A DNA stretch of 64,000 nucleotides. Source: Candidatus Woesearchaeota archaeon. Lineage in GTDB: Archaea > Nanobdellota > Nanobdellia > Woesearchaeales > JAGVYF01. The stretch covers positions 5,150 to 69,149 of the forward strand of contig JAGVYF010000003.1 of the NCBI GenBank assembly GCA_018303425.1, read 5' to 3'. The notes under the pieces were generated by a model. The model saw only the letters and a program-made list of their open reading frames with translations. It did not search any database and was not told the origin of the DNA. Position numbers and translations under genes: made by a program. The stretch's first letter is position 1; the number at the start of each line of letters is the position of its first letter. This document shows positions 1,988-50,990 of the stretch, piece by piece.

Positions 1988-2316
1988 AAATTAATCTATT
2001 AAAGTAGTATTAATATATAAAAGTTGCTACTTTAAACTAATTTGGTAGATAAATAATCTATCAAGGTAGTATTAAATATAAGAAACGAGCATTAATCAAT
2101 CAAGACCAGACGCCACCAATGGAGCACATTGGTAGAAAATGTGATATTATGAACCGCCCGCAAGAAGTGAAGCTCCTGCGCACAGAACTTTCAGTTCTTA
2201 TAGAACCAAAGCTAACTTTTGATAAACAAACTTTCTAATTACAAAAGAAATAAAATTTAATATAAAAATGCGAAAATAAAACAGGCCATTGACAAAACTA
2301 TTTCAATGACACATTT

Positions 2317-13411: not shown

Positions 13412-13530
13412 AAAAGTTAGCTTCACTTCCGTGACGACTAATCGCTTCGCTTATCTAACAAGCTGGCTTGTTTTTTCATTATATATGAATAGCCGAACCG
13501 AAGCTAACTTTTGATAGGCAGACTTTCTAC
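13412..13530. repeat. MITE-like repeat family A, copy 1 (terminal IRs AAAAGTTAGCTTC / GAAGCTAACTTTT)
   Basis: Homologous copy at 39527..39640 and a half copy at 2208..2240. It lies in the convergent intergenic region between HEPN and Fic. Confidence 0.5.
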
Positions 13531-33807: not shown

Positions 33808-33893
33808 GCCTCTGTAGCATAGCAGCTATTGCGTCGGCCTTGTAATATACACAAGAAAGCCGAAGGTCGAGGGTGCAATTCCCTTCAGAGGCT
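33808..33893 (+). tRNA. tRNA-Thr (TGT) with a 13-nt canonical intron
   Basis: Acceptor GCCTCTG/CAGAGGC. Anticodon stem TCGGC/GCCGA with loop CTTGTA[ATATACACAAGAA]A. T-arm GAGGG-TGCAATT-CCCTT. Confidence 0.7.
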
Positions 33894-37078: not shown

Positions 37079-37182
37079 TACATCTAAACATAATTAATTG
37101 ACAATGAAACTACTCCGGATGAACCCACAAATACGAAAGATATATAAGGTTAAATATCTAAATATTAAAAAAGGTGGAGTAT

Positions 37183-37926
37183 ATGAACATTAAAGATATT
37201 ACAATTCTGACAACATTATTATTAATTTTTTCAAATTTGGTAATTGCAGCTGAAGATATTACCGGCGAAGCAACTTATGGAACAATTGAATTTAGCAAAC
37301 ACTGGGAAAAATTATCAGCTGTTGAGCCAACAAAATTCCTTGCTAATAATGAAGAATTTAACATTAGAGAGATTTGGATTAATGTCAATACAGAAACTGA
37401 AAATTCCGTATTCAAACTTATAAAACTACCCTACAGACCTGTAACAACCCCAATACTGAATACAGAAAGCTATCAATTTTATGAATTCAAAACATCTAAT
37501 ATTTTAAAAAGCAATACTAGAACGTCAAAAATAATATTTAGAGTTAAAAAAGAATGGGTTGAAAATAATTCTATTGATGAAGATAATATAAGATTAAATG
37601 TTTTCAAAGACATTGATTGGATAAAATTATCTACAAAAAAAAGAATCTCAATAAATGAAGAATTTTATGAATTTGAATCTGATGTCAATGAATTTTTGCA
37701 ATATTATGCAATTTCAGCTCCAAAAAAAGTATTTTATGATGAAAAAACAACTTCTGAAAACCCTGAAACTATTAAAAAAACAGAAACCATATCTGAAAAA
37801 CCCGCGAAATTAGAAACCTTCGATAAGGCAGGCTGGATAATATCATTTCTGCTTTTGTTAACATTGATTTATATTTTTTACCAAAAAAACAATAAAATCA
37901 ATCATCAAAAACATAAACTTAACTAA
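37183..37926 (+). CDS. Secreted protein with N-terminal signal peptide and C-terminal TM anchor
   Basis: SD AAGGTGGA precedes the ATG. The N-terminal hydrophobic segment ends in AAEDI. The C-terminus WIISFLLLLTLIYIFY is followed by basic residues. Confidence 0.45.
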   Translation: MNIKDITILTTLLLIFSNLVIAAEDITGEATYGTIEFSKHWEKLSAVEPTKFLANNEEFNIREIWINVNTETENSVFKLIKLPYRPVTTPILNTESYQFYEFKTSNILKSNTRTSKIIFRVKKEWVENNSIDEDNIRLNVFKDIDWIKLSTKKRISINEEFYEFESDVNEFLQYYAISAPKKVFYDEKTTSENPETIKKTETISEKPAKLETFDKAGWIISFLLLLTLIYIFYQKNNKINHQKHKLN

Positions 37927-38030: not shown

Positions 38031-38113
38031 TTAAAAAAATCAAGACCACCGAAAGCCTTATATAATTTCTTAGAATAGATAGGTATAATAGTTAGACTGT
38101 TAAAGGTGAAAGA

Positions 38114-38665
38114 TTGAACCACGAACAACTTCTAAAAAAACATGATTTTAAGCAAGAAAAAGCTAATGCTAATTATTTAGATGAACCCGATTTAGCTTTC
38201 CCACAATCTATTAAAAGATACAAATTAGTTTTAGAATCTTATGGAATGAGTATAGAAGAACCATACTTTTGGATTCTGAACATGCTACGTGAAGGAATGC
38301 AATACGTTGATATTATAAAACTTAAAGATGTGTTCACAGCAACAGAAACTTCGTCATTCTTTGGTTTAACAGGCACAAGATTAGAAAGACAGCAAACTCT
38401 TGCAATGCAATATCTTGCGCAGATTGGCAAATTCATAAAAGAACTTTTTGGTATGATTCGCGAATTAAAAACAATTGATTTAAGGCTTGAAATGTATACC
38501 GAAAGCAACAAAAAATTTAGAAATAACGAAAAAGATAAAATCGAAAATAAAAATTTAAACAGGTCTGAAAGCCAATCTGCAGAAATCGCGTTAAAAAACT
38601 TATGGATAGAATTAGTAGAAGGCGGCGCTAAAAATTCAAATTCAGTTTTTGGATTAATGTGTTAA
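38114..38665 (+). CDS. Hypothetical protein (TTG start)
   Basis: SD AAAGGTGA lies 5 nt upstream of the TTG. 183 aa. Overlaps the next ORF by 7 nt. Confidence 0.35.
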   Translation: MNHEQLLKKHDFKQEKANANYLDEPDLAFPQSIKRYKLVLESYGMSIEEPYFWILNMLREGMQYVDIIKLKDVFTATETSSFFGLTGTRLERQQTLAMQYLAQIGKFIKELFGMIRELKTIDLRLEMYTESNKKFRNNEKDKIENKNLNRSESQSAEIALKNLWIELVEGGAKNSNSVFGLMC

Positions 38666-39504
38666 AATCAAAACTTTATTCTTATTTTTCATGGAAAGAA
38701 AAAAGTTATTATGAATATGTAAACCGAAGAAAATTCATGATAAAATATTTAAGACAACATTATGAAATAATCAGAACATACATGAACTGGGTTCGTCCTT
38801 ATTTAACACAGGCAAAAAGATTAAGTTCAGATTTAGAAAGAATAAAAAGTCCGGATTTAGTCGGTGCTTTTGAACAGTCAATGATTGAAGTTGAGTTCCT
38901 TGCAAAGAAAAAAGGCGCCCCGCATAATCGGTGTATACTTGTCCATTTCCTTTACAAAACAAGGCCCGCTTTAGAGTTTCATAAAGAAAATTATCAACAT
39001 AAAGGAGCTATCCATGTTGGAAGAGTTGAAGTAAGTTTTAGGGGTTATACGTGGAAAAATGAAGAAATTGATGCATTTAAGAAATTAAGGGAAGATGAAG
39101 ATTTTGAATTATTAGGTTCAGTTGATACTTCAATCAGCGCTGCAATGGAAGTGCTTAAAGATGATTTAAAAGCTTATTTAAAAGAGGCGGGGCTTGAAAC
39201 ATTCAAAGAAGACGAAAAAACTGCAAAAGAGAAAGAAGAGGATAAACCTAAACCCCCCAGACAATCATTGTTTGAACCATTTACAGAACTCGCTAAAGCA
39301 ACAATATCGCCACTCAAAATGATGGGCGAAGGTTTTGCTGAAATGGTTGGAATAGACCTTTCAAGAAAAGTAGAAAAAGCTAAACCTAAAAAAGAAGTTG
39401 ATGCAGAAAAAACAGACAAAAGTAAAGCCGAAAAAGATGTTCAGATGACACTTTACCTACTTTTCAACTTATACAAAAAGGCCCATGGAATGGCCTCATT
39501 CTAA
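38659..39504 (+). CDS. Hypothetical protein with Lys/Glu-rich C-terminal tail
   Basis: 281 aa with no recognisable motif. Coupled to the upstream ORF. Confidence 0.35.
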   Translation: MLKSKLYSYFSWKEKSYYEYVNRRKFMIKYLRQHYEIIRTYMNWVRPYLTQAKRLSSDLERIKSPDLVGAFEQSMIEVEFLAKKKGAPHNRCILVHFLYKTRPALEFHKENYQHKGAIHVGRVEVSFRGYTWKNEEIDAFKKLREDEDFELLGSVDTSISAAMEVLKDDLKAYLKEAGLETFKEDEKTAKEKEEDKPKPPRQSLFEPFTELAKATISPLKMMGEGFAEMVGIDLSRKVEKAKPKKEVDAEKTDKSKAEKDVQMTLYLLFNLYKKAHGMASF

Positions 39505-39526
39505 ACCAATAGAAAATCAATTACAA

Positions 39527-39640
39527 GAAAGTTAGCTTCACTCCTATGAGAGCTAACCATTTTGTTTATTCAACAAATATAGTTTGTCTTTTGCCATAGA
39601 TGAATAGCTTAACAGAAGCTAATTTTTGATAAACCGGCTT
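39527..39640. repeat. MITE-like repeat family A, copy 2
   Basis: GAAAGTTAGCTTCAC ... GAAGCTAATTTTTGATAAACCGGCTTTCTAA. About 75% identical to the copy at 13412..13530. Confidence 0.5.
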
Positions 39641-39717
39641 TCTAAATATTATTCTATGTAGTATCAGGACATTATTCTAAGCAAATTTTATATAGTCCAA
39701 ATAGAAGATATAACTAA

Positions 39718-41679
39718 ATGGTAGAAATTAATCTGGGCTATTATCATAGCATGGACAGAGAATATGAAATGTTAAATAATTTACAAAGTGAAAATAGAGC
39801 AAGTAAAAACATGTCTAAACCTTTATTAAGCATTGAAGAAATAGGTACAAGTGTTACTGAAGGGAAACCGGTACAAGGTCAAAGATTAAGGCAAACTGTA
39901 ACGGCTGCAATGGGCCGGGGAGTTAAAGAGATTGAGCTTTCTATGCAGGCAAGCAACGTGTTTGAAGGTCCTGGCAGTTACAGCCCGGAAGAACGTGAAG
40001 AATTAAGAGAAATGGCCCGCATAAATCAGGTAAGATTTACAAGTACTCATGTTAGTCCTGGAACAGTTGGAAATTTATCTGGCCTAGGACAAAGAGGATT
40101 TTCTGAACAGGAAAGACAAAGACAGCTGGGTGAAATTAGAGAAGCTATCCAGTTCGCAGGAGAAACAGCGCTAGGCGGAGCAATTGTTGTTCATACCGGA
40201 GAATTTCCAAGGTCTATCTCAAAAGCAGACAAAGACGGAACTCTTTTTTCAGAATTTGCAGGCGAAGAAGGAAAAAAAGAAAGGGTGCATCATCTTATTG
40301 ACAAAAAGACTGGACAAATAATCCAAACAGTGAGAGAAGACCAGGTGAACTACGATTTTTATTATGAAGGCTTAAATGGCGAAATGGTTACTGATGAAAA
40401 ACTTGCAAAAACAGAAACTATAGCTGGTGAAAAAGTTCCAAAATTGTATGTAAACGAGAAAGGCGAATATGAGTCATTTAAAAAAACTTGGAATTATTAC
40501 GAAAATCAAGCCCATAAAATACAAAAAGAAACAGGTAAAAATATTGACCCGGGTAAATTATTTTTTGATGAAACATTAAAAACTCAGATGCAAAAAGCTA
40601 ACAGCCAATCGCTCGATTACCAATCAAGATATTTTGAGGCCAAAGAAGGCGCAGACAAAGTAAAAGAGGAAATAAACAAAATTAAAGAATATATTAAAAC
40701 TTATCCTGCAAGTGAAGAATTAGAAAGAATAGAAGATCAGATTTCAAAAATCATTTTTATCCCTGAATCTGAAAAGGGCAACAAAGATTTAATTTTAAAA
40801 AGACTAGACCAGCAAATTAAAAATAATGAAAGAAAAGTAGAATCGTTTAAAGAAGCAACGATGTCAAGTCAAAGAAATATAAAAGAACTTGAAAGAGTGC
40901 AAGAAACAACTGACTCAATTAGCAATTATGCAAAAAATAAAAGTATAAACTCTCTAGCTAGTTTGGGGATAGATGCAATGAAAGAAACACAAAAAGCCGA
41001 AGCAAAATTTGGCAAAATCCAAAAAGTCCGAGACATTTTTATTGCGCCTGAAAATATATTCGCAGAAATGGGTCATGGCAGCCATCCTGATGAACTTATT
41101 GAACTTGTACAGGAATCAAGAAAAAGTATGGCTGAGCGATTACATAAAGAACAAAATATTGAAATGTCTGAAGCAGAAAAACTTGCAAACAGACACATTA
41201 AATCAACATTGGACACAGAACATTTAGGTATGTGGAAACGTTATTTTCAAAAAAAACCTGGCGAATCTGAAGAAAAATTTGATAAAAGATTCGAAAAGTG
41301 GTACCTTGAACAAATAAAAAAATTGGGTGAAGCTGATGTTATAGGTCATGTGCACATAGCTGATACTTTTGGTTACTCTCAGAGCCAATTGCCTGCTGGA
41401 CACGGGGCGATGCCTTTATATGACGCAATAAAATATCTAAAAGAAAAAGGATACAAAGGAACTTTTGAATCTGAAGGCTGGGGAGATCCAGTAAAACAAG
41501 AAACATCAGCATGGAGTTATTTTGGAAGCCCAATATACTCTATAAAATCATCCAAACCTGTGCAATTCGGCCAGGTTCATCAAGGTTATTTTGCCAGCAG
41601 ATCCCCTTATAGAAATGTAACTCCCCCATATTACCCCTCTGAAGATTGGCAACTATGGAGCGAAGTACCTTTAGATTAA
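39718..41679 (+). CDS. Xylose-isomerase-like TIM-barrel protein (sugar-phosphate isomerase/epimerase or AP-endonuclease-2 fold) interrupted by a ~330-aa charged coiled-coil insert
   Basis: N-terminal part GRGVKEIELSMQ...VRFTSTHV. C-terminal part DVIGHVHIADTFG...YLKEKGYKGTFESEGWGD. The middle is K/E-rich. G+C is higher than the neighbours by eye. Confidence 0.45.
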   Translation: MVEINLGYYHSMDREYEMLNNLQSENRASKNMSKPLLSIEEIGTSVTEGKPVQGQRLRQTVTAAMGRGVKEIELSMQASNVFEGPGSYSPEEREELREMARINQVRFTSTHVSPGTVGNLSGLGQRGFSEQERQRQLGEIREAIQFAGETALGGAIVVHTGEFPRSISKADKDGTLFSEFAGEEGKKERVHHLIDKKTGQIIQTVREDQVNYDFYYEGLNGEMVTDEKLAKTETIAGEKVPKLYVNEKGEYESFKKTWNYYENQAHKIQKETGKNIDPGKLFFDETLKTQMQKANSQSLDYQSRYFEAKEGADKVKEEINKIKEYIKTYPASEELERIEDQISKIIFIPESEKGNKDLILKRLDQQIKNNERKVESFKEATMSSQRNIKELERVQETTDSISNYAKNKSINSLASLGIDAMKETQKAEAKFGKIQKVRDIFIAPENIFAEMGHGSHPDELIELVQESRKSMAERLHKEQNIEMSEAEKLANRHIKSTLDTEHLGMWKRYFQKKPGESEEKFDKRFEKWYLEQIKKLGEADVIGHVHIADTFGYSQSQLPAGHGAMPLYDAIKYLKEKGYKGTFESEGWGDPVKQETSAWSYFGSPIYSIKSSKPVQFGQVHQGYFASRSPYRNVTPPYYPSEDWQLWSEVPLD

Positions 41680-42496: not shown

Positions 42497-43177
42497 ATGA
42501 CACAAACCCCTAAAAAAAAAGTGGAAGCAGTATTATTTACAATCGGCAAACACATATCTTTAAATGAAATCAAAAAATTGTCTGGAATTACTGAAGATAG
42601 CCTTCTTAACCAATACCTTAATGAGTTAAAGGAAGAATATGAAAAAAATGATTCATCGCTCCGTCTTATCCAAGATAACGAATTTTGGAAAATGGGAGTT
42701 AAAGAAGAATATTGCGATATCGTAGAAAATATTGTTAGCGATACAGAGCTAAGTAAAAGTGTAATGGAAACCCTAGGGGTTATAGCATGGAAACATCCCG
42801 CGCTCCAAGCTGATGTCGTACACATTAGAACAAATAAAGCATATGACGACATAAAAGAACTTGAAGAGTTAGGCTTTATTTCAAGAATTAAATCTGGAAG
42901 AACCAAAAAAATAAATTTAACGGAAAAATTCTTTAATTATTTTGATTTACCTACACATAAAAAAGAAAAAGAAGTTCTAAAAAATTTAGTCCCTGAAAAT
43001 ATTAAGGATAAAATAGATGAAACTGAGATTGAAATTCATGAAGGAGAAAAAGCGGTTGAAAATCATAAAATTAAGTCAGAACTGCAAAAACAAAAGCAGG
43101 AACAGCTTAAAACTTTTAATGATGCTGAAAAAGAGATTCATCTTGCAATTGAATCCATAAAAGAAGAACGAACCTAA
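42497..43177 (+). CDS. scpB: Segregation and condensation protein B
   Basis: N-terminal EAVLFTIGKHISLNEIKKL and a second wHTH LGVIAWKHPALQADVVHIR, the tandem-winged-helix ScpB pattern. Confidence 0.6.
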   Translation: MTQTPKKKVEAVLFTIGKHISLNEIKKLSGITEDSLLNQYLNELKEEYEKNDSSLRLIQDNEFWKMGVKEEYCDIVENIVSDTELSKSVMETLGVIAWKHPALQADVVHIRTNKAYDDIKELEELGFISRIKSGRTKKINLTEKFFNYFDLPTHKKEKEVLKNLVPENIKDKIDETEIEIHEGEKAVENHKIKSELQKQKQEQLKTFNDAEKEIHLAIESIKEERT

Positions 43178-47233: not shown

Positions 47234-48236
47234 TGTGTTATCCCTCAAATATTTCGCACTTGTTTAAAGTATGATAAAGCTGTTGCTTTATCCATGAAAT
47301 TAATAATTAAAAAACAGGTGCGTATAGTGAAAAGAAAACAAAATAGATTGTCATCAGCTTTAATCGCTAAGCAGTTTAATATTTCAAAACGCAGAGTGGA
47401 GCAAGTTTGGAGCTATTTCTGTAAAAATACCGCATATCTCCCGATACAAAAGCCAGGAAGGAAGCCTTATAGGAAGGAAATCCCTAATCTAAAAGATAGG
47501 ATACTTAGAATCCATAAGAAGCATAATTTTGGTGCTACTTATATTGCGAAATTTTTACGAGATAAACTTAAAATACCAATCTCAAATAATTATATTCATC
47601 AAATATTGCTTGATGGGGGATTAGCAATGCCAAATAAATGCAAACAAAAACGTAGAAAACCTTGGGTTAGGTATGAAAGGAGACATAGCTTGTCTGCGGT
47701 ACATATGGATTGGCATTATAGCTCTAAATTGAATAAATGGATGTGTGCAGTATTAGATGATGCTTCAAGAAAAATTATATCTGGTGGGGAGTATGATAAC
47801 GCATATGCAAGTCATTGTATAGATATGCTTGAAAAAGCATATGAGAAAAATAAACAGATAATTGGCATTAGGGAAGTGATTACCGATCATGGATCTCAAT
47901 TTTTTGCAAATAAAAAGAAAAACGATGGAGACCAATCTGAAAGTAAATTCCAGGAATACTGCAAGAATAAAGGAATTAATCATATTTTCTGTAAGTATCA
48001 TCATCCACAGACAAATGGGAAATTTGAAAAATGGAATCATACCTATGAACTACATAGATATAGGTTTAATTTTTTTGAAGAATTTGTCGATTGGTATAAC
48101 AATCGACCTCACGGAAGCCTTAATTTTATGACTCCGGAACAAGCGTTCTGGTTCAAAGCACAAGATATTATTTTAGGGTGGTTTTTTAAATGGGCAGAAC
48201 TAAATTAAAGATGCGAAATAATTACGAGATAACACA
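47234..48236 (+). mobile_element. Insertion sequence (IS481-like), ~1.0 kb, imperfect ~25-bp terminal IRs (TGTGTTATCC...TTTCGCA), 9-bp TSD ACGCTAAAA
   Basis: Left end TGTGTTATCCCTCAAATATTTCGCA. Right end (reverse complement) TGTGTTATCTCGTAATTATTTCGCA. Direct repeats ACGCTAAAA at 47224..47232 and 48237..48245. Confidence 0.7.
47294..48208 (+). CDS. Transposase, rve (DDE integrase-core) family with N-terminal HTH
   Basis: VHMDWHY, ITDHGSQF and HPQTNGKFEKWN form the DDE triad context. Confidence 0.75.
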   Translation: MKLIIKKQVRIVKRKQNRLSSALIAKQFNISKRRVEQVWSYFCKNTAYLPIQKPGRKPYRKEIPNLKDRILRIHKKHNFGATYIAKFLRDKLKIPISNNYIHQILLDGGLAMPNKCKQKRRKPWVRYERRHSLSAVHMDWHYSSKLNKWMCAVLDDASRKIISGGEYDNAYASHCIDMLEKAYEKNKQIIGIREVITDHGSQFFANKKKNDGDQSESKFQEYCKNKGINHIFCKYHHPQTNGKFEKWNHTYELHRYRFNFFEEFVDWYNNRPHGSLNFMTPEQAFWFKAQDIILGWFFKWAELN

Positions 48237-50826: not shown

Positions 50827-50990
50827 GGGCAGCGAGAGGGAGTCGAACCCTCCTCACAGGATTTCTGCAATTTGCCTTTAACCATCAGAAATGAGCTAAA
50901 ATAAAGTTTTTGCTCGCTGATTTTGGTCAAGCTTTTTGCTTGGCAAAAAGGTTGCCACAGTCCCATATTCTACCGATGAACTACCGCCGC
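50827..50990 (-). tRNA. tRNA-His (GTG) with encoded G-1 and a ~93-nt canonical intron
   Basis: Minus strand reads G-GCGGCGG-TA-GTTC-ATCGGTA-GAAT-A-TGGGA-CTGTGG[93 nt]A-TCCTG-TGAG-GAGGG-TTCGACT-CCCTC-TCGCTGC-C. Discriminator C73 pairs with G-1. A TATA box lies at about +51015..51025. Confidence 0.6.

Follow-up and report, generated by a model that had tools for sequence, protein, structure and literature searches.

The window, that is, the whole stretch of 64,000 nucleotides that we analysed, carries two genes at positions 38114..41679, even though three ORFs are found there. The first gene, X501, appears as two of these ORFs and is followed by the gene of a 653-aa protein, hereafter the TIM gene. 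The features of this region are the following:

38056-38065, + strand: putative X501 promoter, with the TATA-like box CCTTATATAA, from the archaeal promoter consensus
38104-38109, + strand: putative X501 ribosome-binding site AGGTGA, 4 nt 5' of the TTG, from the SD consensus
38114..39504, + strand: X501, a single gene, here disrupted, whose 501-aa product is DPANN-specific, from the comparison with contigs L001, L002, and L004
38114..38665, + strand: ORF of 183 aa with a TTG start, the N-terminal fragment of X501
38655..38656, no strand: deletion junction, from pairwise alignments to the three contigs
38659..39504, + strand: ORF of 281 aa with a GTG start, the C-terminal fragment of X501
39718..41679, + strand: gene for a predicted xylose-isomerase-like TIM-barrel metalloenzyme of 653 aa, with an insert

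An earlier note on this DNA had described the 183-aa and 281-aa ORFs as two coupled genes devoid of recognisable motifs. Their coordinates and the 7 nt that they share were right, but they are not separate genes. Pairwise alignment of the three near-identical contigs showed in each an unbroken X501 ORF of 1506 nt, which differs from the window by 1-4 substitutions and by 115 extra nucleotides at ~38655. X501 thus looked like two ORFs because a 115-nt deletion breaks the gene, and the motif-less pair is an artefact of this split. The 183-aa ORF continues out of frame beyond the deletion for two residues and a stop codon, and the 281-aa ORF is the original X501 reading frame 3' of the deletion. 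The missing nucleotides encode residues 182-220 (AQQVGFGTLPDLFFSNPAKSTEDLDKEMNKLPYNEKVKN), a segment whose conservation is 0.76 (versus 0.64 for the protein average) and in which fall the invariant L190, P191, F194, F195, and N215. The deletion in this one contig costs X501 39 of its best-conserved residues. The split products are present in one public record only: the 183-aa fragment, deposited as MBS3112631.1, is restricted to a single contig, and the 281-aa fragment, deposited as MBS3112632.1, clusters with intact 501-aa proteins. In the public annotation of this MAG (locus tags J4418_00915/00920), the broken gene figures as two hypothetical proteins, an entry that can now be corrected. A genuine deletion would leave the module formed by X501 and the TIM gene crippled in this strain, whereas the module would be intact if the gap is an error of the assembly.

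X501 is a basic, highly conserved protein of 501 aa that is specific to Woesearchaeota/Nanoarchaeia, and its family exceeds 505 clusters (E~1e-105). Our searches of Pfam and of the PDB sequences returned no match for it, and no full-length fold relative was found in PDB or BFVD. We did find a structural match to KA1 domains (MARK, Chk1, and SAD kinases; METTL16 VCR; TUT1) that concerns ~90 of the 501 residues, at 5-12% identity. The KA1-like domain of X501 appears interrupted by a helical hairpin of ~200 aa.

The earlier note had recognised in the 653-aa protein a xylose-isomerase-like TIM barrel split by an insert, based on motifs (IELSMQ, GHVHIADTFG, and GYKGTFESEGWGD) that are all found in the protein. 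The Pfam profile of this fold (PF01261, AP_endonuc_2) confirms the assignment: it matches in two separated stretches with 46.9 bits, above the cut-off of 31.1 (E 3.8e-12), and is carried by 87 of 88 homologous clusters. In the predicted model, the two halves complete a single closed (beta-alpha)8 barrel of the xylose-isomerase fold, whose strands lie on both sides of the insert. The parts of the protein discussed below are encoded as follows:

39832..40212, + strand: N-terminal part of the barrel (aa 39-165, beta1-beta4 and alpha1-alpha3), with DSSP strands at 42-47, 71-76, 106-112, and 154-159
40213..40917, + strand: insert (aa 166-400) in the beta4-alpha4 loop
40918..41532, + strand: alpha4 and the C-terminal part of the barrel (aa 401-605, beta5-beta8), with DSSP strands at 440-445, 496-499, 542-547, and 582-585
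41380..41388, + strand: codons of Q555-S556-Q557, at the positions of the endonuclease IV third-zinc ligands D229 and H231
41533..41676, + strand: C-terminal tail (aa 606-653, ...PSxDWxLWSxVPLE), predicted disordered

The insert had been described as a charged coiled coil of ~330 aa. It does contain long helices (278-328 and 356-397, each of more than 40 residues) and is richer in K and E than the whole protein (28% versus 22%), but it is only ~235 aa long and includes a beta-rich subdomain. It starts directly after the metal-ligand motif HTGE and consists of a linker (166-189), the beta subdomain (190-257), and a helical part (258-400). The model is confident over most of its length, with pLDDT values per 10 residues of 77-79 at 171-190, 71-82 at 331-360, and ~84-95 elsewhere. 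We found it, at varying length, in all 156 unique homologous sequences; the best 150 of 581 representative clusters, which range from 477 to 773 aa, also all have it. F177, E185, D195, and G199 are its conserved residues. The insert is thus a structured expansion of the beta4-alpha4 loop and a trait of the family. A profile restricted to it matched prefoldin beta best among PDB entries (E 0.34) and no Pfam family consistently. It is mildly acidic (pI ~6), which argues against direct binding of nucleic acids by the insert. It probably sits on the barrel's catalytic side, and a structured insert at the active-site face is unprecedented. The C-terminal tail has pLDDT values below 50, yet its columns are as conserved as those of the barrel (0.56), with W647 kept in 97% and E653 in 94% of the sequences. 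We regard this tail as a putative partner-binding motif.

Such an architecture could in principle be a fusion produced by misassembly, or have been recently acquired by horizontal transfer, as the earlier note had suggested from the G+C richness of the gene. The TIM gene is indeed G+C-rich: its total GC (0.358) is the second highest of the 48 genes (z=1.75). However, its GC3 is average (0.243, rank 21 of 48, z=0.17): the surplus of G+C comes from the first and second codon positions and thus reflects the amino-acid composition. The gene order ADK-TruD-GGR-PGF protein-501aa-TIM-MJ0538-ScpB-GyrA is kept in relatives at 70% and 59% identity, and full-length homologues of the family occur in 475 species genomes, all from one lineage. 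The identical 653-aa protein is encoded on 5-7 independent contigs, and the presence of the insert in all the homologues mentioned above rules out a fusion artefact. We give practically no credence to either scenario: the TIM gene is vertically inherited and native to its lineage, and a false signal of horizontal transfer is removed.

The barrel carries a conserved, predicted metal site. E73, H111, H159, E162, R165, E445, D499, H502, and H546 are invariant in the 156 sequences, and D549 and E586 are conserved in 155 of them. The Glu-Asp-His-Glu tetrad on beta5-beta8 is present (E445, D499, and H546 in 156/156, E586 in 155/156) and lines up with the motifs of MJ1311, DTE, and Nfo. Several databases label such proteins as sugar or sugar-phosphate isomerases/epimerases, an ordinary enzyme that would use a single Mn/Co site made of E445, D499, H546, and E586 and in which the insert would only be an oligomerisation or lid element. 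We consider this unlikely. The additional invariant H111, H159, and H502 are not needed by a one-metal epimerase and fit the pattern of endonuclease IV and MJ1311; nor would a single metal require the H/D-x-H motif present in 85% of the members. All matches to NCBIfam models, epimerases and isomerases included, are far under the cut-offs (18.7 versus 305 bits). The tight linkage to a basic, non-enzyme-like partner of 500 aa and to an acidic coiled-coil protein (see below) is also atypical of a sugar enzyme. D-tagatose/D-psicose 3-epimerases and related PF01261 proteins (PDB 2qul, 4xsl, 2zvr, 6wn6) align only at beta7-beta8 (E 0.004-0.007), and unlike these sugar isomerases the barrel family has extra invariant His ligands, an insert, and partner genes.

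The ligand pattern is common to the barrel family and endonuclease IV (Nfo, EC 3.1.21.2; PDB 1qtw, 2x7w, 3aam). We checked the ligand positions in the Nfo sequence (H69, H109, E145, D179, H182, H216, D229, H231, and E261) and mapped them at the motif level with hhalign in local mode, which gives a weak alignment (probability 0.3%). The equivalences of H69 and E145 rest on inspection of the motifs because hhalign places both imprecisely. Seven of the nine positions are occupied in the window protein, and Q555 and Q557 replace the third-zinc ligands D229 and H231. Across the family, 132 of the 156 sequences have H/D-x-H at these positions and 20 have H-x-N; Q-x-Q is confined to the window protein, P0002, and P0003. 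We read the barrel as a probable active enzyme that would use two or three metals and most likely hydrolyse phosphoesters, because the endonuclease IV/MJ1311 pattern is kept (H111, H159, E445, D499, H502, H546, and E586) and because of the prevalence of H/D-x-H; given Q-x-Q, the clade of the window probably has two metals. A DPANN endonuclease IV, acting as AP endonuclease or in 3'-end-cleaning DNA repair, with the insert and X501 providing contacts to DNA or the replisome, would share these ligands, but seems to us quite improbable. No NCBIfam Nfo model matches at E<=1, the third-zinc ligands are replaced in the clade of the window and in the 20 H-x-N members, the 235-aa insert is acidic, and neighbourhoods outside the clade of the window show no DNA-repair theme. 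Nfo has a DNA-binding groove with the intercalating residues Arg37, Tyr72, and Leu73; Tyr72/Leu73 are not evident in the alignment with the barrel, which is unreliable in this region.

The closest solved relative of the barrel is MJ1311 (PDB 3wqo), the 'D-tagatose 3-epimerase-like protein' of Methanocaldococcus jannaschii, of unknown function. Its structure reportedly lacks a DNA-binding groove, which also counts against an endonuclease IV. MJ1311 has 293 aa, without the insert and without the conserved N- and C-terminal tails of the window's family, and only the beta7-beta8 region aligns significantly in sequence with the 653-aa protein. We know of no X501-like partner of MJ1311. We regard the TIM family as a sister of the MJ1311-like proteins, which are insert-free barrels of ~290 aa. 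The literature on DPANN and Woesearchaeota revealed nothing relevant on xylose-isomerase-like or endonuclease IV proteins.

We analysed the neighbourhood of the TIM gene in the 62 loci whose upstream sequence reaches 2.6 kb or more. X501 is upstream on the same strand in 49 of them, within 1.3 kb in 42 and farther away in 7; the other 13 lack it within 8 kb upstream. The broken copy of the window also adjoins the TIM gene, and at locus L006 the genes overlap by 4-7 nt. The next commonest neighbour family was found in only 29 of 80 loci. No other neighbour is linked to the TIM gene nearly as strongly as X501, and this gene order suggests physical contact between the two proteins. The 13 loci devoid of X501 and the apparent separate promoter of the TIM gene in the window (see below) speak against such contact. 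A small, very acidic coiled-coil protein is usually encoded between them. A search of all frames of the 64-kb window gave no match to its gene (E<=10), which is also missing at the loci of close relatives (L088 and L089); in the window's genome it could be encoded elsewhere. The downstream 207-aa gene of the MJ0538 family was considered as a candidate and rejected (BLAST E 0.89). We also rejected a tie between the loss of third-metal ligands in Q-x-Q and the loss of the small gene: this gene accompanies DxH, HxH, and HxN, and HxH is also found where the gene is missing.

This gene organisation is analogous to that of MNIO enzymes (MbnB, TglH; DUF692), in which a TIM barrel with a multi-metal centre is encoded with a partner and a small substrate protein. 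The barrel could then be an MNIO-like multi-iron enzyme modifying proteins (MbnB/DUF692-type), with the small acidic protein as its substrate and X501 as the partner that binds this substrate. We find this very improbable. There is no match to the DUF692 family, and the closest structural similarity lies elsewhere. The explanation that we consider slightly more likely than not is a two-gene module in which the native, insert-bearing barrel is a multi-metal enzyme working with X501. The insert and the conserved disordered tails would most likely gate the active site and dock the enzyme to X501. The latter may deliver or recognise the substrate because its core resembles KA1 domains, which bind polyanions (RNA, acidic lipids). 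More tentatively, and with clearly less confidence, we suggest that the barrel with its insert, X501, and the small acidic coiled-coil protein might together form a three-protein machine not recognised before, near-universal in and specific to Woesearchaeales/Nanoarchaeia. A multi-metal enzyme of the endonuclease IV/MJ1311 type would there be tethered by its helical arm and conserved tails to a partner of new fold; its substrate would be a macromolecular polyanion such as RNA, DNA ends, or host-derived acidic lipids. If true, this machine would be a lineage-defining housekeeping activity of host-dependent archaea. In the tiny genomes of DPANN archaea, much of the conserved gene set lacks a known function. 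Two families of the lineage are now defined, an insert-bearing barrel with an endonuclease IV/MJ1311-type metal site and an orphan partner of 500 aa. They are mostly encoded side by side in the 475 species-level genomes, and the X501/TIM pair, expressible and with predicted catalytic residues and testable substrates, offers a probe of lineage-specific biology.

The spacer of 213 nt between X501 and the TIM gene includes two further features:

39529..39645, + strand: repeat element of ~115 nt, with inverted repeats of 11 nt at its ends and a T4-5 run after it
39681..39694, + strand: BRE/TATA-like box GCAAATTTTATATA, 24 nt 5' of the ATG of the TIM gene

The repeat that the earlier note had placed after the small ORFs is bounded by the 11-nt inverted repeats AAGTTAGCTTC ... 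GAAGCTAAnTT. It does have a second full copy in the window (13414..13520), as well as a partial one (2203..2243); the pattern occurs at 2 loci of the window (0 expected by chance). It matches no Rfam family and is not present in the spacers of 36-38 nt of L088 and L089. Its folding z-scores range from -2.7 to -4.7. The region had also been called an operon, which is only partly right here, as the repeat intervenes and the TIM gene has its own TATA-like box. This box, kept in the spacers of the window, L001, L088, and L089, is a putative promoter of the TIM gene.

The gene for the partner protein X501 is broken in the window. The three ORFs that the earlier note had described are present, and the lack of recognisable motifs in the first two was borne out, as neither has any Pfam or family-model match:

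38114..38665, +, ORF1, 183 aa
38659..39504, +, ORF2, 281 aa, overlapping ORF1 by 7 nt
39718..41679, +, TIM-barrel protein, 653 aa

An identical 653-aa protein is encoded on four other contigs, three of which have a single 501-aa ORF (X501) upstream of the TIM gene; the fourth begins at the TIM gene and thus offers no upstream comparison. Base by base, the window differs from these three contigs by 1–4 substitutions and by 115 nt missing at ~38655. The length of this gap is not divisible by three, and the resulting frameshift gives ORF1 its apparent stop and ORF2 its overlapping GTG start. The missing part of X501 spans 39 residues (182–220), with conservation of 0.76 (vs 0.64 for the remainder) and five invariant positions. 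An exact-sequence look-up placed the 183-aa and 281-aa products on one 77.6-kb contig only, and on other contigs at least 10 near-identical variants retain the full 501 aa. Given the 115-nt difference and these intact variants, the two ORFs are one broken gene and not, as had been proposed, a translationally coupled pair. The split reflects either a pseudogene specific to this strain or an error in the assembly, i.e., a conserved module is damaged or mis-assembled in the window's contig.

The TIM gene itself is native, and its insert is a family trait. When homologues with and without the insert were sought, it was present in all 156 unique sequences, with variable length (20–101 aa for its beta part, 102–188 aa for its helical part), which is at odds with a fusion artefact of misassembly. 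All 88 clusters from a word-indexed search encode proteins of 524–738 aa. An exhaustive profile search of 1.84 billion representatives gave 581 clusters at E≤1e-30, the best 150 of which are all 477–773 aa long, and only 1,293 at E≤0.001. The gene is indeed G+C-richer in total (0.358, second highest of 48 genes), but its GC3 is average (0.243, rank 21); the first and second codon positions of the barrel halves account for the excess, which thus reflects amino-acid composition. The acquisition previously suggested from this composition is contradicted by the GC3 rank and by the gene order on both sides of the gene, which is the same in relatives at 70% and 59% identity. Artefact and horizontal transfer were both excluded on these grounds, together with the presence of relatives in 475 genomes in a scan of one genome per species.

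The 653-aa protein scores above threshold against PF01261 (xylose isomerase-like TIM barrel), with the match divided between two separate stretches. Based on 40 homologues, the structural model has high confidence (pLDDT 83.5, pTM 0.79) and joins the N- and C-terminal halves into a single barrel, as anticipated, with strands at 42–47, 71–76, 106–112, 154–159, 440–445, 496–499, 542–547, and 582–585 and the expected helices between them. The insert occupies residues 166–400, between beta4 and alpha4, directly after the HTGE motif. In TIM barrels the active site is formed at the C-terminal ends of the strands, which places the modelled insert on the catalytic face. The charged coiled coil of ~330 aa described earlier is K/E-rich (28% K+E; mildly acidic across the family) and has helices of up to 50 residues (258–400), but it is 235 aa long and includes a beta-rich subdomain (190–257) with near-invariant D195 and G199. 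Its pLDDT per 10 residues is 77–79 over 171–190, 71–82 over 331–360, and about 84–95 elsewhere. A profile of the insert alone found no PDB or Pfam relative; its best, non-significant matches were subunits of prefoldin, which are antiparallel coiled-coil hairpins. The C-terminal tail (606–653) is disordered in the model, yet its conservation equals that of the barrel and suggests that it holds a binding motif.

Nine residues are invariant in the 156 sequences (E73, H111, H159, E162, R165, E445, D499, H502, and H546), and two others, D549 and E586, are present in 155. We compared them with the nine zinc ligands of E. coli endonuclease IV (Nfo), verified in the real Nfo sequence. In a local profile alignment, H159 matches H109, D499 and H502 match D179 and H182 (DTGH vs DTCH), H546 matches H216, positions 555/557 match D229/H231, and E586 matches E261; this alignment is statistically weak, and the mapping is therefore one of motifs, with the fold match as support. 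Two further pairs were assigned by motif: H111 with H69, and E445 (APEN) with E145 (IEN). The same motifs align with MJ1311, the closest solved relative, which a published table gives for M. jannaschii as the predicted homologue of Endo IV (PMC2770678). Positions 555/557 read H/D-x-H in 132 of the 156 sequences and H-x-N in 20, and Q-x-Q only in the window and two other homologues (P0002 and P0003). Judging from this mapping and the Q-x-Q, the family appears to consist of Endo IV/MJ1311-type multi-metal enzymes, and the third metal site has probably been lost in the window's clade. The four residues of a one-metal ketose epimerase are all among these ligands, so that epimerase chemistry is possible; even so, we consider a sugar epimerase or isomerase unlikely. 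A bona fide DNA-repair analogue of Endo IV seems to us distinctly improbable. Our preferred reading, held with moderate to low confidence, is a hydrolase with two or three metals, most probably a phosphoesterase.

X501 belongs to a family of more than 505 clusters at 90% identity (E about 1e-105 at 42–45% identity) that is basic (median pI 9.1). Neither a Pfam domain nor a related PDB sequence was identified for it, and its model found no match in a viral structure library. The AlphaFold2 model (pLDDT 77.6, pTM 0.63) starts with a beta-alpha-beta unit, followed by two very long helices (86–131 and 216–277) on either side of the most conserved segment, three long strands (295–352), and further helices.

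The two families are strongly linked across the lineage. All-against-all clustering of 80 loci from different species placed X501 in 58, always on the same strand. Among the 62 loci with enough upstream sequence, X501 lies within 1.3 kb in 42 and further upstream in 7, and it is absent within about 8 kb in 13. Looser neighbours are a Na+/H+ exchanger (29 of 80), a Pol-beta-type nucleotidyltransferase (26), and a small methyltransferase-like protein (25). The X501-TIM pairing is thus conserved far more strongly than the surrounding synteny; on the customary reasoning from gene neighbourhoods, this suggests a functional link. A third gene lies between the two in 41 of the 80 loci:

L005 7245..7895; L006 7381..8004; 39 other loci: small acidic coiled-coil protein

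Its product (140–220 aa, net charge −13, no Pfam match) is a very acidic coiled coil with an N-terminal KKLSPEERIKxLKxLEE and a C-terminal ...YKTAxE...GYKK. The 3' end of the gene overlaps the extended TIM ORF by a median of 9 nt, and in L006 the three genes overlap by 4–7 nt. It is absent from this position in the window and its close relatives. A link with the metal-ligand variants was rejected, as its presence does not track them.

The insert and tails may gate the active site and dock the enzyme to X501, whose KA1-like basic core would recognise a polyanionic substrate; we hold both proposals with moderate to low confidence. That the pair forms an MNIO-like protein-modifying system is very unlikely in our estimation. 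The fold and superfamily are already known. Neither the barrel architecture with its insert, nor the orphan partner family, nor the conserved module that they form appears to have been described: literature searches for the three found no description, and databases label the proteins as hypothetical or as generic sugar isomerases. As a part of DPANN dark matter the module is well defined, widespread, and amenable to experiment, and its function is putative.

In close relatives, 36–38 nt separate the X501 stop from the TIM start, a spacer made up of little more than a BRE/TATA-like box (GCAAATTTTATATA) located 24 nt upstream of the ATG. The spacer is ~175 nt longer in the window and near-identical contigs, including a repeat of about 115 nt that, in this lineage only, lies between the X501 stop and the TIM promoter:

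39529..39645, repeat element
13414..13520, second full copy
2203..2243, partial copy

The element carries inverted repeats of 11 nt at its termini (AAGTTAGCTTC / GAAGCTAAnTT), with a T4-5 run after them. On either strand it folds into a more stable structure than its shuffled controls (z −2.7 to −4.7). No Rfam family matched it, and it may represent a MITE-like element or a module acting as small RNA or terminator. Before its TTG start, X501 has a TATA-like box of its own and a putative AGGTGA ribosome-binding site. With a TATA-like box for each gene and a spacer and T-run-bearing repeat between them, the two are probably transcribed separately in the window's lineage.

The window is a low-GC archaeal genome fragment (mean gene GC 0.31) encoding an archaeal SRP RNA and GyrA, along with the following features:

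37174..37926, +, PGF-pre-PGF protein, 250 aa (TIGR04213, 1.5e-12), with a hydrophobic C-terminal segment
41872..42495, +, MJ0538-family protein, 207 aa (PF27325)
42497..43177, +, ScpB, 1 nt after the PF27325 gene
47294..48208, +, rve integrase-domain ORF, 304 aa (PF00665, annotated on the equivalent gene of homologous locus L003)
50828..50990, −, tRNA, 163-nt span (Rfam match, no ARAGORN call)

The first, directly upstream of X501 in the window's clade, is probably an archaeosortase-type surface protein. The gene of the kleisin ScpA is usually placed immediately before that of ScpB, and from this position the PF27325 protein may be a divergent ScpA-like partner. The integrase ORF suggests that an IS element or an integrated mobile element lies ~5.6 kb downstream of the TIM gene. 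In the public record the studied ORFs are hypothetical proteins from a Candidatus Woesearchaeota MAG, and all their named homologues come from Woesearchaeota, Nanoarchaeota, or Nanoarchaeia. Many contigs with the gene pair (L009–L011, L017, L020, and others, from binchicken co-assemblies) are titled 'uncultured Methanosarcinales archaeon', and L062, which carries this DPANN-specific pair, 'Candidatus Aminicenantes bacterium'; given their gene content, these titles look like taxonomic mislabelling or mis-binning. The span of the tRNA at 50828..50990 fits an intron-containing archaeal tRNA, and another tRNA, at 33808..33893, was likewise detected by Rfam only.
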